Shown here: one piece after another, positions 12,701-64,000 of the stretch | Layout of the letters: each line of letters starts with the position of its first letter | Numbering within the stretch: position 1 is the stretch's first letter | Source of the DNA: a virus | Virus record (IMG/VR): IMGVR_UViG_3300032288_002811 | Location: 13,391 to 77,390 of that record | Direction: 5' to 3' (one strand) | DNA length: 64,000 nt | Translations under genes and position numbers: made by a program | The notes under the pieces: generated by a model | What the model was told of the DNA's origin: nothing | The model's database searches: none | Seen by the model: only the letters and a program-made list of their open reading frames with translations

Positions 12701-14274
12701 CTTACTTGTGTTGCGTTGTTTGATTGAGTAAAAGCTGCATTAGCATATGAACCCGCACTTGTTGCTTTAGTATCTGCTGTATTGGCTGCTGTAAATGCAC
12801 CATTCGCATAAACACCAGCAGCAGTTGCCGTGTTGGCTTGTGTGAAAGCACCATTTGCATATGCAGCTGCAGAATTTGCCGTGTAACTTGGTGTATTGGC
12901 TGCTAAGAATGCCGAGTTGGCATATGAACCAGATGCACCACCTGCTGTATTAGCAACAGCAAATGCTGAGTTTGCATACGAACCAGCAGTTACTGCTTTA
13001 GCATCTGCGGTATTGGCCACACCAAATGCCGTATTGGCATATGTGCCAGAATTTACTGCCTTGGTATCAGCAGTATTAGCAGCAGTAAAAGCGCCGTTGG
13101 CATAAGAACCTGCTGATACACTAGTATTAGCCGCACTAAATGCCGAATTGGCATATGAACCTGATGCTACTGATTTGGCATCGGCTGTATTGGCTGCCGT
13201 GAAAGCACCGTTGGCATAAGAAGCTGCTGAAGTGATATTGGTGTTTTGTGTTAAATCAATACCAACACCGTTATTAGCTGACAAGAATGCTGAGTTGGCA
13301 TATGAACCTGCTGAATTGGCTGTACCAAAAGCACCATTAGCATATACACCTGAAGATGTTCCACTTAATGAGGCTGTATTGGCTGTTGCAAATGCACCGT
13401 TGGCATATATCGCAGCTGAGTTAGCCACACCAAATGCCGTATTGGCATATGTGCCAGAATTTACTGCCTTAGTGTCAGCAGTATTAGCAGCAGTATAACC
13501 TGAATTGGCATATGAACTGGCTGCTAATCCATTTGTATAAGCTGTGTTTGCTTGAGTATATGCGGAGTTGGCATAAGAACCTGCGGTGTTTCCTTTGTCA
13601 TATGCATTTGCAATAACACCAGCAGTATCAACACCACCGATTGTTATCTTACTAGCAATTACATTTGCTTTGACCACATTTGCGGCCACATTTGCATACT
13701 TGAATGATGAGTCAGTAACAATAATATTATTATTTGGTAATACTTCAGGTGTATATTCTTCAAAGAACATCCATTCTTTGGTGCCTGCATCTCTAATAAT
13801 ACCTGTATGAGCATTTACACCATTATTATAATGTGCTGCAAAACCAATATCAATTACATCAGATGTATAATTACCAATACCCATAATAAACATCGAATCA
13901 TTTACAACAAATGAATTTGTATTGATGTTTGTAGTATTACCAAGAATGTTTAAGTTGCCGGTAACTGTTAGGTTTTGATTTACGTTTAAAGAACCTGTAA
14001 TTGTACCACCAGTTAATGGTAATGCATTGTTAGCTGCATCAAACGCTGATTGACCGGTAGTATCACTTTTTTGTACTAGGTCACCATCAGCAGTTCCAGA
14101 TTTCCACCAGTATTCAACAACTGGAGAAGAACCAATACCAACAGTCAAACCAAGATAACGATTTCCAACAGACACAGAACTCTTAGCAGTAGCTGTATCT
14201 GCATATGGACCGTACCTAGAATCGGTCGATAAAGGTGCTTGTATACTTAGATTGTCGTTTAGGGTAATTGCCAT
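9712..14274 (-). CDS. Fibre protein, 1520 aa: Ala/Asn heptad repeats, knob module, central beta-sandwich, short collagen-like stretch, C-terminal beta domain
   Basis: YAN(S/G/A)AF repeats; GGQGPRGPTGATGTTGATG followed by GGTTGQVLVKNSSTNYDTGW; C-terminal TIKWLN...DVITFTL. Confidence 0.75.
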   Translation of the reverse strand: MAITLNDNLSIQAPLSTDSRYGPYADTATAKSSVSVGNRYLGLTVGIGSSPVVEYWWKSGTADGDLVQKSDTTGQSAFDAANNALPLTGGTITGSLNVNQNLTVTGNLNILGNTTNINTNSFVVNDSMFIMGIGNYTSDVIDIGFAAHYNNGVNAHTGIIRDAGTKEWMFFEEYTPEVLPNNNIIVTDSSFKYANVAANVVKANVIASKITIGGVDTAGVIANAYDKGNTAGSYANSAYTQANTAYTNGLAASSYANSGYTAANTADTKAVNSGTYANTAFGVANSAAIYANGAFATANTASLSGTSSGVYANGAFGTANSAGSYANSAFLSANNGVGIDLTQNTNITSAASYANGAFTAANTADAKSVASGSYANSAFSAANTSVSAGSYANGAFTAANTADTKAVNSGTYANTAFGVANTADAKAVTAGSYANSAFAVANTAGGASGSYANSAFLAANTPSYTANSAAAYANGAFTQANTATAAGVYANGAFTAANTADTKATSAGSYANAAFTQSNNATQVSGWKANTIIFANNNGYLSNTSNLEYFTSNNAFKISGNVNSVGANVALGVVDNLHIYGGAPGQYLITDGTGVLSFADIEAPATTSYTADSLSLTNGVYVSGSVTDTQTLNDGNSYQITDGNGSGPAWIITFTFSGITSFNRIVANIDYTPASGHIIYFQIYNNSTSSWDNIGSYSGANGYAQYALEVLGYTSYISAGAVQARLYHSNAGNTGHASKIDYFALEQTVTGGQGPRGPTGATGTTGATGNGVASGGTTGQVLVKNSSTNYDTGWSSDLINAYAGANSAGSYANAAFLQANTATPAGVYANSAFAGANTADAKAVTAGSYANSAFAAANSASGAASAGVYANGAFTVANSSSSYANAAFAAANSASGASSAGVYANSAFLAANTPSYVANSAAIYANGAFTQANTATSAGVYANGAFTQANTATTNAATADAKAVTSGSYANSAFTVANTAALNATSAFNVANSAFESVVPAAIYANGAFIAANTADSKAVGAGSYANGAFAAANAASSASASSYANSAFLTANTPSYTANSAASYANGAFAAANAASSASASSYANSAFLQANTPSYTANSAASYANGAFTQANTATSAGVYANGAFTAANAASSASASSYANGAFISANSAGVYANSAFGIANNITAASSYANSAFLTANTPSNVANSAALYANGAFTQANNVTAASSYANSAFLSANTPSYVANSAASYANGAFTAANAASSASASSYANSGFAVANSAASYANSSFSQSNTAATNASTADAKAVSAGTYANGAFTAANTADAKGTSAGSYANAAFSTANNVTAAAGYANGAFTQANTAATNALSAGSYANAAFGIANTAGTNATGAGSYANSAFTTANNALPKAGGTVSGLVTFSSNTVFQQSQENFQSKSSSSGATTYDYSTGATFYHTGVGGNITATITGLDNTSSRVSTFVCIIAQGATPYIVNSISVNGSTPTIKWLNATTGVGVANRVDVITFTLINVSGTFTILGQLNSYG

Positions 14275-62117: not shown

Positions 62118-62648
62118 ATGGCAGGCTCGATTAGCGATTTCAAATCCAGTTTTAGGACAGATTTAGCAAGACCAAGTAGGTTTGATGTTATCATTCCTAT
62201 TCCTGTTGTATTGTTTCAATCACCTTTGGTTACAAGCAAAAGCCTTACATATCGTTGTGAAGCCGCAGTTTTACCAGGCCGTACATTTGAAACACATGAA
62301 CAGAAAACTTATGGACCAATTGAAAAATTTCCACACCTAACGTCATACACAGATGTTGACCTAACAATTTTGATGGATGATGATATGAAACAGAAATATG
62401 CATTTGATGCATGGCTGAATAGTATCAATTCACCAATTGACAATAATTATAGTTATAAAGATAGTTATTCAACAACAATTACAATCAATCAATATGATGT
62501 TACAAATAAAATGTCATACTCGGTTGATTTGTATGAAGCATTTCCAATTTCTATGAATCAATTGGATTTAGATTGGAATAATGACGGTGTACATAAACTG
62601 TCTGTTACATTCGCATATACTTATTGGAGAAACAATTCTCTATTTTGA
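62118..62648 (+). CDS. gp54: Tail-tube-fold protein (gp54 tail tube initiator / gp19-like)
   Basis: LARPSRFDV, CEAAVLPGR, FDAW, ITINQYD, LYEAFPI...LDW...LSVTFAYTYW. Confidence 0.7.
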   Translation: MAGSISDFKSSFRTDLARPSRFDVIIPIPVVLFQSPLVTSKSLTYRCEAAVLPGRTFETHEQKTYGPIEKFPHLTSYTDVDLTILMDDDMKQKYAFDAWLNSINSPIDNNYSYKDSYSTTITINQYDVTNKMSYSVDLYEAFPISMNQLDLDWNNDGVHKLSVTFAYTYWRNNSLF

Positions 62649-62666
62649 TTTAATTAAGGAGTTATT

Positions 62667-63392
62667 ATGGCTTTACCAAAAATTGATGTACCAACATACG
62701 ACATTACATTACCAGTTTCAAAGAAAGAGATTAGATATAGACCTTTCCTTGTAAAAGAACAAAGAAATCTATTGATGGCCATGGAATCAGATGATTCGTC
62801 ATCTGTGCATACGGCAATCCGAGACATTCTTTATAATTGTACCTTGACAGAAGGTGTTGATATTGAGAAGTTACCTATTGTTGACGTTGAGTTCTATTTT
62901 ATTAATCTGAGAGCCAAATCGGTTGGTGAAGTGGTTGATTCGAAATATCGTTGTAACAATATTGTAGAAGATAAAGAGTGTGGCAATTTAATGGATTCTA
63001 ATATGAATCTGTTAGAGGTTAAGGTTGAGATGGATGAAAATGTTTCACCTGATATACAACTAACTGAAAAGTTGATGGTAAAAATGAAATACCCTGAGTT
63101 TGGTATTGTTAAAGATTCTATCAATATGGAAAATGATACTGATATCACCTTTAATATGTTGGCTCGTAGTATTGAACACATTTACGATGGTGAACAATTT
63201 TACTATGCACACGAAACACCAATTGAAGAATTGGTACAGTTCGTTGAAGGTATGAACCAAGAACAGTTTATGAAGATTGAAAACTTCTTTAATAACTTAC
63301 CAAAGTTACAACAGAAGCTTGAGATGACCTGTTCTAAGTGTGCATTCCACCACGTTATTAATGTGGAGGGACTTGAAAGTTTTTTCGTATAA
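62667..63392 (+). CDS. gp26: Baseplate hub assembly chaperone
   Basis: MALPKIDVPTY...LP..KKEIRYRPFLVKEQ..LLMA.ES, DVEFYFINLRAKSVGE, MKYP, FFNNLPKL, CSKC, EGLESFF; SD AAGGAG at 62656-62661. Confidence 0.9.
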   Translation: MALPKIDVPTYDITLPVSKKEIRYRPFLVKEQRNLLMAMESDDSSSVHTAIRDILYNCTLTEGVDIEKLPIVDVEFYFINLRAKSVGEVVDSKYRCNNIVEDKECGNLMDSNMNLLEVKVEMDENVSPDIQLTEKLMVKMKYPEFGIVKDSINMENDTDITFNMLARSIEHIYDGEQFYYAHETPIEELVQFVEGMNQEQFMKIENFFNNLPKLQQKLEMTCSKCAFHHVINVEGLESFFV

Positions 63393-63574
63393 CCTTTCGC
63401 CATGATAACCTGAAAAATTATTATAGAACTAATTTTTCATTGATGCAACATCATAAGTACAGTTTAACCGAACTTGACAATATGATGCCATGGGAAAGGG
63501 ACATATATGTTGCAATGTTGATTCAGTATATTGAGGAAGAAAACCAAAAAATAAAAGAACGAATGAAAAAGTAA
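63377..63574 (+). CDS. gp51: Baseplate hub assembly catalyst (gp51-like); frame open from 63377, first ATG at 63443
   Basis: Not in the track (43 aa from ATG). Manual translation: ...HDNLKNYYRTNFSLMQHHKYSLTELDNMMPWERDIYVAMLIQYIEEEN...*, the gp51-like motif of T4-like phages. Confidence 0.75.
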   Translation, partial: KFFRITFRHDNLKNYYRTNFSLMQHHKYSLTELDNMMPWERDIYVAMLIQYIEEENQKIKERMKK

Positions 63575-64000
63575 ATGGCACAACCATCAGAAGAAACAAA
63601 AAAGTCGGCAGCAAGTATGGCGTTTGGTCGCCTTAGTAAACTTGCGCTTACAGGTGCCAAAAAAACAATTTCAACTGTTGGTAAACTGTTTACTAAAAAG
63701 CCAGAAAATCTTGTTGATGAATCCTCACCACCGACCAAGATTATGGGTGAAATATATAAGATGATGAAACTCATGGATTTAGATAGAAAACTAAATCAAG
63801 AGGCTGCCAACTCTCATATTGAAGAACAAAGTCATATGAGAGATAAACGCAATAAAGAAATAATCAAAGCATTAACTACTCCTAAAATTAAAAAACCAAG
63901 AGTAGTAAAACCTAAAAAAGTAAAAACACAGGAAACAGAGACAACACCTTTACCTCCTGTTAATAAAACTCCTGGTCAAACAACAACACAACCAGCCACA
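63575..64000 (+). CDS. 5' part of a protein following gp26/gp51, candidate hub/tape-measure (gp29-like)
   Basis: ATG immediately after the gp51 stop (TAAATG); MAQPSEETKKSAASMAFG... open for 142 codons to the window end. Function is inferred from position only. Confidence 0.6.
   Translation, partial: MAQPSEETKKSAASMAFGRLSKLALTGAKKTISTVGKLFTKKPENLVDESSPPTKIMGEIYKMMKLMDLDRKLNQEAANSHIEEQSHMRDKRNKEIIKALTTPKIKKPRVVKPKKVKTQETETTPLPPVNKTPGQTTTQPAT

Follow-up and report, generated by a model that had tools for sequence, protein, structure and literature searches.

The DNA described here (the window) is a stretch of 64,000 nucleotides (nt), positions 13,391 to 77,390 of IMG/VR virus record IMGVR_UViG_3300032288_002811, and comes from an uncultured T4-like phage of lake water. 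It contains a gene resembling gene 26 of phage T4 whose last codons include the heptamer T TTT TTC, and this end is overlapped by a second open reading frame (ORF), in the -1 frame, that resembles the C-terminal part of T4 gp51. An inspection of the sequence alone (the original prediction) had proposed that a programmed -1 ribosomal frameshift at the heptamer fuses gp26 to gp51. The present analysis supports programmed -1 frameshifting on T TTT TTC, with a conserved heptamer, a conserved -1 phase, and a short and a long form of a tail assembly protein as the predicted products.

The gp26-like gene and its -1 frame extension

The features of the locus are listed in Table 1. The gp26-like ORF matches PF12322 over residues 9-240 with 191.1 bits, compared to a curated cut-off of 24.5, and its zero-frame codons end GAA AGT TTT TTC GTA TAA. 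The -1 frame opens at 63377, reads KFFRITFRHDNLKNYYRTNFSLMQHHKYSL..., and ends with a TAA at 63572-63574. The two frames overlap across 63377-63389, a segment of 13 nt with the heptamer inside; because the -1 frame is closed by a TGA on the 5' side and the zero frame by a TAA on the 3' side, entry into the extension must cross frames within this overlap. The predicted products are a short form of 241 amino acids (aa) and a long form of 240 + 62 = 302 aa.

A program-made list of ORFs gives only a 44-aa ORF (63440-63574) for the -1 frame. The complete 65-aa frame, however, matches phrog_634, "baseplate hub assembly catalyst," over residues 2-64 (E = 2.2e-29), and this match takes in the 20-odd residues 5' of the ATG at 63443. 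The extension is collinear with the gp26-like body only when one base is re-read. The positions given in the original prediction for the GGAGGG, the TGA, the heptamer and its phase, the stops, and ATG 63443 were all confirmed base for base, and its remark that this ATG has no obvious Shine-Dalgarno (SD) sequence holds as well, as there is no GGAG-like run 5' of it in the sequence.

Table 1. Features of the gp26/gp51-type locus, its neighbors, and hairpins in three other lineages
Feature	Position	Strand	Match or remark
Tail-tube-like gene, adjoins the gp26-like ORF on its 5' side	62118..62648	+	phrog_45 "tail tube," E = 4.9e-39; PF06841 Phage_T4_gp19, E = 4.1e-07
gp26-like ORF, short form, 241 aa, C terminus ...GLESFFV	62667..63392	+	PF12322 T4_baseplate, E = 2.7e-56; phrog_150, E = 2.5e-61
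SD-like GGAGGG, 9 nt 5' of the heptamer, possible 5' stimulator	63365..63370	+	Overlaps conserved Glu-Gly codons
TGA closing the -1 frame upstream	63374..63376	+	
Slippery heptamer T TTT TTC, X XXY YYZ phase	63380..63386	+	
-1 frame extension, 62 codons + stop, gp51-type C-terminal domain	63386..63574	+	phrog_634; alignment to T4 gp51 tail
Zero-frame stop TAA, one codon past the heptamer	63390..63392	+	
TTG 63440 and ATG 63443, first canonical starts in the -1 frame (rival start)	63440..63445	+	
Next gene, 5' part only (truncated at the contig end)	63575..64000	+	
Lineage hairpin, S-PM2	L081:2517-2580		
Lineage hairpin, L150	L150:1444-1510		
Lineage hairpin, L179	L179:1405-1470		

Conservation of the heptamer

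The heptamer was followed through 173 loci: the window, 80 IMG/VR loci whose gp26 is 66-100% identical to that of the window (the window clade), 79 evaluable loci of a diverse set of 80 from IMG/VR (31-49% identity to query P0135), and 13 named phages, i.e., S-PM2, DSL-LC03, KVP40, phiM7, Astolliot, Melnitz, Desulfovibrio phage 7757, S-B68, MC09, P-HM1, S-CAM4, ACG-2014d, and Ah1. Locus searches with T4 gp26 and KVP40 gp26 returned only 7 and 2 close loci, respectively. An in-phase T TTT TTN lies within 3 codons of the zero-frame stop at 172 of the 173 loci, that is, at all 172 that could be evaluated; the sole miss, L144, runs off its contig. The -1 frame runs on into the conserved domain at every evaluable locus whose contig allows it. 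An alignment of gp26 3' ends had been suggested with the original prediction as a check, and both the heptamer and the -1 phase are recovered by it throughout. The gap between heptamer and stop in the 79 diverse loci is most often 1 codon (71 loci), with 0 codons in 6 and 2 codons in 2.

For codon statistics the 172 evaluable loci were reduced to 142 unique ORFs. The codon preceding TTT is AGT, AAT, GAT, or TCT and has T at its wobble position in all 142 (gene-body background, 0.76), and all 142 likewise have TTT as the first Phe codon (background, 0.72). The last codon of the heptamer is TTC in 122 ORFs, TTT in 18, and TTA in 2, with a background TTC share of 0.28. Three loci have TTA, and two of these three encode proteins ending in Phe-Leu (FL) instead of Phe-Phe (FF), so that with T TTT TTA the nucleotide run is retained although the protein has changed. 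In the alignment, gp26 identities among the loci reach down to ~30%, where synonymous sites are otherwise scrambled. As judged from these codon counts, the heptamer is conserved beyond the requirements of the protein.

These counts bear on a reading without recoding, in which the -1 ORF is an independent small gene and the heptamer is a by-product of a conserved C-terminal Phe-Phe. The dipeptide is indeed conserved at the protein level, T4 gp26 included, and 8 of the 12 annotated GenBank records treat the ORF as a gene of its own. Both synonymous positions of the heptamer, however, are fixed in 142/142 ORFs; in addition, the FL variants keep TTTTTTA, and phages that have a separate gene 51 spell FF as TTC TTT. 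The start codons that such a gene would need are considered in the next section.

The arrangement might also be the remnant of a fused gene that was broken by a one-base deletion, or the product of a homopolymer error in assembly, with the 3' part unexpressed, since homopolymer runs are prone to sequencing errors. We find this hardly credible: 172 independent contigs and genomes, obtained in many studies and on many sequencing platforms, share one frame arrangement, and the extension is under purifying selection (see below). No in-frame gp26-type fusion was found among the 120 nearest homologues or the 150 nearest 50%-identity cluster representatives listed, with roughly 7,000 and 3,900 further matches, respectively, lying outside these lists. 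The best 150 representatives are all 134-266 aa long, and in 125 the C terminus is FF followed by 0-3 residues. A match of the -1 frame to phrog_150 was considered as a sign of naturally fused genes and rejected, as T4-type gp51 itself belongs to phrog_150.

Coding constraint and start codons in the -1 extension

Among 50 unique sequences of the window clade, the 19 codons between the heptamer and ATG 63443 have variable columns at 7, 4, and 16 of 19 first, second, and third codon positions, and the 42 codons past the ATG show the same pattern (16, 8, and 40 of 42). By this pattern of substitution the -1 extension is under purifying selection, and the start-less stretch between heptamer and ATG evolves like coding sequence and, on the same grounds, is probably translated. 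The gp51-like residues that had been noticed 5' of the ATG are thus borne out by the coding constraint over 19 codons as well as by the phrog_634 match. The frame is also widespread: a tblastn search with its 65 aa matched 555 phage records, 543 of them over at least 80% of the frame; of the 60 alignments listed, 57 begin with residue 1 or 2 of the frame and the other 3 with residue 5 or 9.

An independent small gene would have to start at TTG 63440 or ATG 63443, or else be entered by termination-reinitiation or through a non-canonical start near the gp26 stop. In 51 unique junctions of the window clade, no ATG or GTG occurs within the 19 codons 5' of the ATG, yet third positions vary there as in the rest of the domain; a TTG is present at codon +8 in 10 of the 51 and at codon +18 in most. 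The second codon past the slip site is ATA, TTA, or CTA, with no conserved near-cognate start, and ATG 63443 is itself replaced by an Ile codon (ATA) in several relatives, e.g., L028 and L034. Across lineages the first ATG, GTG, or TTG past the slip site is found anywhere from codon +1 to codon +19 or later, no start codon in the extension being conserved among the lineages compared, and a -1 frame start codon 5' of the heptamer is present in 2 of the 62 unique junctions tabulated.

The annotations reflect this variety. Eight GenBank records place the start 2, 3, 3, 3, 6, 9, 12, and 19 codons past the slip site, the stretch is unannotated in the other 4 of the 12 (DSL-LC03, S-CAM4, ACG-2014d, and Ah1), and a joined coding sequence is given in none of the 12. 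Where the -1 domain is annotated, it appears as a 47- to 62-aa "gp51" with an arbitrary start. Four lineages do have an ATG 2-3 codons past the gp26 stop region, a point in favor of a separate gene. The homologous T4 domain, on the other side, is always joined to a gp26-type body, and taking this together with the spelling of the heptamer and the behavior of the start-less codons, we regard an independent gene without recoding as very improbable.

Comparison with T4 gp26 and gp51

T4 gp26 (208 aa) and the short form of the window align over their full lengths, the two C termini reading ...GLKEFF and ...GLESFF, respectively. T4 gp51 (249 aa) consists of a gp26-type body followed by a tail: PF12322 covers residues 1-201 (E = 3.9e-52), and phrog_150 covers residues 3-248. 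PF12322 is therefore common to the window ORF, T4 gp26, and T4 gp51. Residues 200-249 of T4 gp51 align to the -1 extension of the window (BLASTP E = 3e-06) and also to a profile of 82 extensions (E = 2.1e-05), and the alignment to the gp51 tail starts at the second Phe, which is encoded by the heptamer. From these alignments the short form is the counterpart of gp26, and the predicted long form is the counterpart of full-length gp51. The idea of gp26 fused to gp51 accordingly needs recasting: a long form made by frameshifting stands, but it is the long product as a whole that corresponds to gp51, as T4 gp51 is no small ORF.

The genetic arrangements differ. In T4 the two proteins come from diverged paralogous genes without a slippery site, which share ~20% identity over the aligned part and lie on opposite strands, so that T4 cannot use a frameshift here. 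In the window, both forms would come from a single gene by frameshifting and share an identical 240-residue body, where T4 uses two genes.

Phages with two genes offer a natural control. An in-phase heptamer is present in none of the seven Straboviridae with separate genes 26 and 51 (T4, HX01, QL01, Konradin-v2, PspYZU05, AS-gz, and RB49). The FF dipeptide is retained in four of the seven, spelled TTC TTT in T4, HX01, and QL01 and TTT TTT after an A in PspYZU05, and it is lost in Konradin-v2, AS-gz, and RB49. The T4 spelling amounts to a natural synonymous knock-out of the site.

Gene 26 of PspYZU05 ends GAA TTT TTT AAA TTA ATG TAG (L108:2017-2052), with a T6 run where the heptamer lies in the other phages and an A at the first heptamer position; this run may be a relic of the slip site.

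The number of PF12322 genes in complete genomes agrees with the division into two types, with one each in S-PM2, KVP40, phiM7, Astolliot, and Ah1 and two in T4. A single PF12322 gene is also found in four large incomplete IMG/VR contigs and in the record from which the window is taken.

Four cysteines of the gp26-type body are invariant or nearly so in an alignment of 145 gp26-type proteins (alignment A3; window residues 58, 105, 222, and 225), and a CxxC motif lies near the C terminus, immediately before the GL.xFF end of these proteins. T4 gp51 has weak zinc-ribbon matches in Pfam (E = 0.12-0.2). The conserved residues suggest that the body carries a zinc-binding site.

Proposed mechanism

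We consider it highly probable that the gp26-like gene is decoded in two ways through -1 ribosomal frameshifting on TTTTTTC, giving proteins of 241 and 302 aa. Most ribosomes would read 62667-63392 and release the 241-aa gp26 counterpart. A fraction would slip, with the tRNA-Phe molecules on UUU (63381-63383) and UUC (63384-63386) shifting back together by one base on U UUU UUC and re-pairing on UUU UUU, so that the next codon would be CGU (63386-63388). The slipped ribosomes would then read 61 codons past CGU to the stop at 63572-63574 and complete the 302-aa gp51 counterpart, made up of the 240-residue common body and a 62-residue C-terminal domain. Both forms would act jointly as non-structural chaperones in the assembly of the hub and in tail-tube initiation, and the ratio of short to long form would be set by slip efficiency, as for lambda gpG/gpGT. 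The proposed chaperone role is taken over from writings on T4 gp26 and gp51, both of them "hub assembly chaperones" according to Table 2 of Leiman et al. 2010 (PMC3004832).

This mechanism builds on observed features, namely, the anatomy of the site, its conservation, the coding constraint on the start-less stretch, the collinearity with T4 gp51, and the occurrence of one gene versus two. From them we infer the ribosomal nature of the shift, its occurrence in vivo, and its efficiency.

Several points weigh against it. The long form is a predicted product, and the conservation counts are overstated as a measure of independent events, since the loci are phylogenetically related. In S-PM2, KVP40, S-B68, and MC09 an ATG lies 2-3 codons past the slip site, and a separately initiated small protein is possible there. 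No 3' stimulator is apparent: the 50 nt past the window heptamer fold at -0.9 kcal/mol (z = +0.78), and none of 35 unique clade sequences reaches -8 kcal/mol over 55 nt, compared to 21% of internal controls. The SD-like element is not universal among the 142 unique ORFs (GGAGG in 44, only AAGG in 47, and no SD-like word in 7), and its overlap with conserved Glu-Gly codons confounds the two constraints. In addition, U UUU UUA and U UUU UUU are described in a review as much less shift-prone than A AAA AAG in Escherichia coli (PMC5009743), and this weak shiftiness of U-run heptamers means that the efficiency may be low. Such a low value would fit a low ratio of long to short form, like the 30:1 ratio of lambda gpG to gpGT quoted in the same account (PMC5009743).

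A further point against the ribosomal mechanism is that transcriptional slippage would yield an identical product. RNA polymerase would add one U to the U6 run, and normal translation of the altered transcript would give the same 302-aa protein; a conserved T run, a -1 frame that stays open, and collinearity with T4 gp51 also fit this reading. Some relatives have longer runs, TTTTTTT being read at 15 of the 79 diverse loci; L190 and L191 reach eight or nine T. Bacterial and phage sites known for transcriptional slippage, however, mostly call for some nine A or T or more, and in 122 of the 142 unique ORFs the run stops at six T. The seventh position is C in 86%, compared to a background of 28%; a C there limits the run, whereas selection for polymerase slippage should lengthen it. 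In contigs from lake-water RNA libraries no inserted base is seen at 63380-63386, and a contig from run X4 spans 63305-63609 with the T run free of insertions or deletions, although this is a weak argument as contigs drop rare variants. On balance we regard transcriptional slippage as improbable and prefer ribosomal frameshifting.

Stimulatory elements

The original prediction had pointed to the region past the heptamer as a place to look for a 3' stimulatory fold. In the window, segments 63387-63440, 63387-63470, 63360-63480, and 63392-63430 were folded, and 63387-63470 gives no credible structure in the window or in its clade. The RNAalifold consensus for 45 unique clade sequences is only -1.12 kcal/mol. 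Family-wide, the fold z-score (-0.13) is no better than that of the internal control (-0.39); in the diverse set, 28% of sequences reach -10 kcal/mol, compared to 19% of controls.

Two candidate structures were rejected. A window hairpin at 63411-63439 consists of A-U pairs and one G-C pair, has an energy of -5.6 kcal/mol, and begins 24 nt past the heptamer; it does not stand as a 3' stimulator for the clade. A stem of GUGGAGGG (63363-63370) with CCUUUCGC (63393-63400), which would enclose the slip site, appears in one minimum free energy fold of 63360-63480 (-21.1 kcal/mol, z = -1.44). This pairing of GUGGAGGG with CCUUUCGC was put down to chance, since RNAalifold misses it and it is, by eye, broken in relatives with GTAGAAGG and CATTTCGT.

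Some other lineages do have stable hairpins 5-9 nt past the heptamer: -14 kcal/mol in S-PM2, -17.7 kcal/mol in L150, and -19.6 kcal/mol in L179 (z = -3.8 to -4.8). In each, extension codons from about +2 to +6 pair with codons +10 to +15, and the sequences differ per lineage. The window retains the 3' arm of this hairpin (AAUUAUUAUAGAAC of the NYYRT codons) without the 5' arm. As the hairpin is clear in some lineages and absent from the window clade, it is best seen as a lineage-specific addition that lies outside the core signal.

On the 5' side, the codons that make up the SD-like element show some bias. The Glu codon is GAG in 58 of 124 ORFs, compared to a share of 0.21 in gene bodies, and GGT is depleted at the Gly codon (29 of 141, compared to 613 of 1,027 in gene bodies). 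These codon choices hint that a purine-rich word 9-10 nt 5' of the heptamer may be mildly preferred. The proposal of an SD-like 5' stimulator therefore survives in part: GGAGGG is present and words of its kind are enriched, but the element is only partly conserved.

Comparison with lambda G/GT and dnaX

The likeness to lambda gpG/gpGT, which the original prediction had put forward as an equivalence, lies in the logic of the products and in gene order. In both systems a short and a long form share an N-terminal body to which the long form adds a small domain, and the window gene directly follows a tail-tube-type gene. T4 gp51 is described as needed for assembly yet absent from the particle (PMC3004832), and so are gpG and gpGT in lambda (PMC5009743).

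There is no sequence similarity to go with this likeness. With hhalign, lambda G and lambda T score probabilities of 0.4% and 0.08%, respectively, and Pfam shows no family of tail assembly chaperones at E values up to 10. Searches by sequence and by profile found no PDB relative of the gp26-like protein, and the ESM Atlas holds no model of it. The window body is larger (240 aa) and has the four conserved cysteines, its heptamer is T TTT TTC with a zero-frame stop within 0-2 codons, and the gene that follows the cassette is no recognizable tape measure. Membership of the lambda chaperone family is unsupported by sequence.

A second comparison is with E. coli dnaX, where an SD-like element upstream of the heptamer stimulates -1 frameshifting at a characteristic spacing. 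The window has a GGAGG-type word ~9-10 nt 5' of its heptamer, and the synonymous choices at the two SD-like codons (Glu and Gly) lean to purines. The window differs from dnaX in having no 3' hairpin, in the imperfect conservation of an SD-like element that overlaps Glu-Gly codons, and in the heptamer itself. The dnaX site is given as A AAA AAG in the review cited above (PMC5009743).

Evolution and significance

An unrooted tree of 36 hand-picked rows (22 frameshift-type bodies, 7 gp26, and 7 gp51 cut to 205 residues, other loci being left out) shows three groups: the frameshift type (support 100/99), gp51 (100/100), and gp26 (66/50). A duplication within the T-even branch would agree with this tree but is not demonstrated by it. 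The frameshift type is spread over the Kyanoviridae, Emdodecavirus, Otagovirus, and the Straboviridae genera Schizotequatrovirus and Cinqassovirus, and this much wider spread suggests an ancestral frameshift, with duplication of the gene in the T-even branch. We put forward only tentatively, as a possibility somewhat short of even, the fuller form of this scenario: that the frameshift dates back to the common origin of the T4-like phages as a whole, including the Kyanoviridae with their freshwater relatives, Straboviridae of the KVP40 and Ah1 types, phages of the phiM7 type, and others, and serves as the functional counterpart of lambda G/GT, and that the T-even branch then resolved it by duplication into genes 26 (short) and 51 (long).

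Most lineages would then obtain by slippage the two products for which the T-even phages use a pair of paralogous genes. A short and long pair with a common body suggests a model for gp26/gp51 in which a shared body binds, the extra tail recruits a partner, and the ratio is fixed. If the ancestral scenario is true, the case would be one of the few documented in which a conserved programmed frameshift gave way to a pair of paralogous genes, and it would remove a textbook exception. The words "except T4" stand in the review by Atkins et al. 2016 (PMC5009743).

A search of the full-text literature, outside of which lay subscription journals and supplementary files, found no report of frameshifting in gp26/gp51-type genes. 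The true gp51 orthologue (~300 aa) is absent both from these proteomes and from tables of "core genes," because in the 12 annotated records the -1 domain is called as a small "gp51" or omitted and no joined coding sequence is given.

Source and gene neighborhood

The record from which the window is taken has 77,390 bases and an estimated completeness of 46%, and the window forms its 3' end. The nearest isolates by DNA are Kyanoviridae cyanophages at ~70% identity, a match confined to the frameshift junction region. Contigs from four lake-water RNA libraries of the year 2025 (runs X1-X4) match pieces of 62600-63876 at 90-100% identity, which indicates that the phage or near relatives are present in lake water and possibly transcribed, although DNA carry-over is possible. 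These runs consist of contigs and may contain DNA, so they cannot reveal rare U7 transcripts, starts, ends, or expression levels, and stretches without cover carry no meaning.

Besides the tail-tube-like gene, T4-type head-completion (gp4-like) and DNA-end-protector (gp2-like) genes are further neighbors in the window. The gene that follows the cassette is complete in L001, a relative whose gp26 is identical to that of the window (L001:3909-5471, 520 aa). Its product has a long low-complexity linker rich in Pro, Thr, and Ala, and its C-terminal domain is matched by phrog_37890 and phrog_30077 alone, both PHROGs of unknown function; a Pfam search of the 520-aa protein gave no match. The second gene downstream (L111:1605-2978, 457 aa) has weak tape-measure matches, to phrog_58 (E = 1.5e-05) and phrog_8462 (E = 0.006). 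With only these matches, the tape measure of this phage group is not securely identified. The slip site does not lie directly upstream of a tape-measure gene, as the 520-aa gene intervenes and the 457-aa gene is only weakly tape-measure-like. After the 457-aa gene there is a switch of strand to replication genes, including a gp32-like single-stranded DNA-binding protein gene, a halogenase-like gene, and a helicase loader gene.

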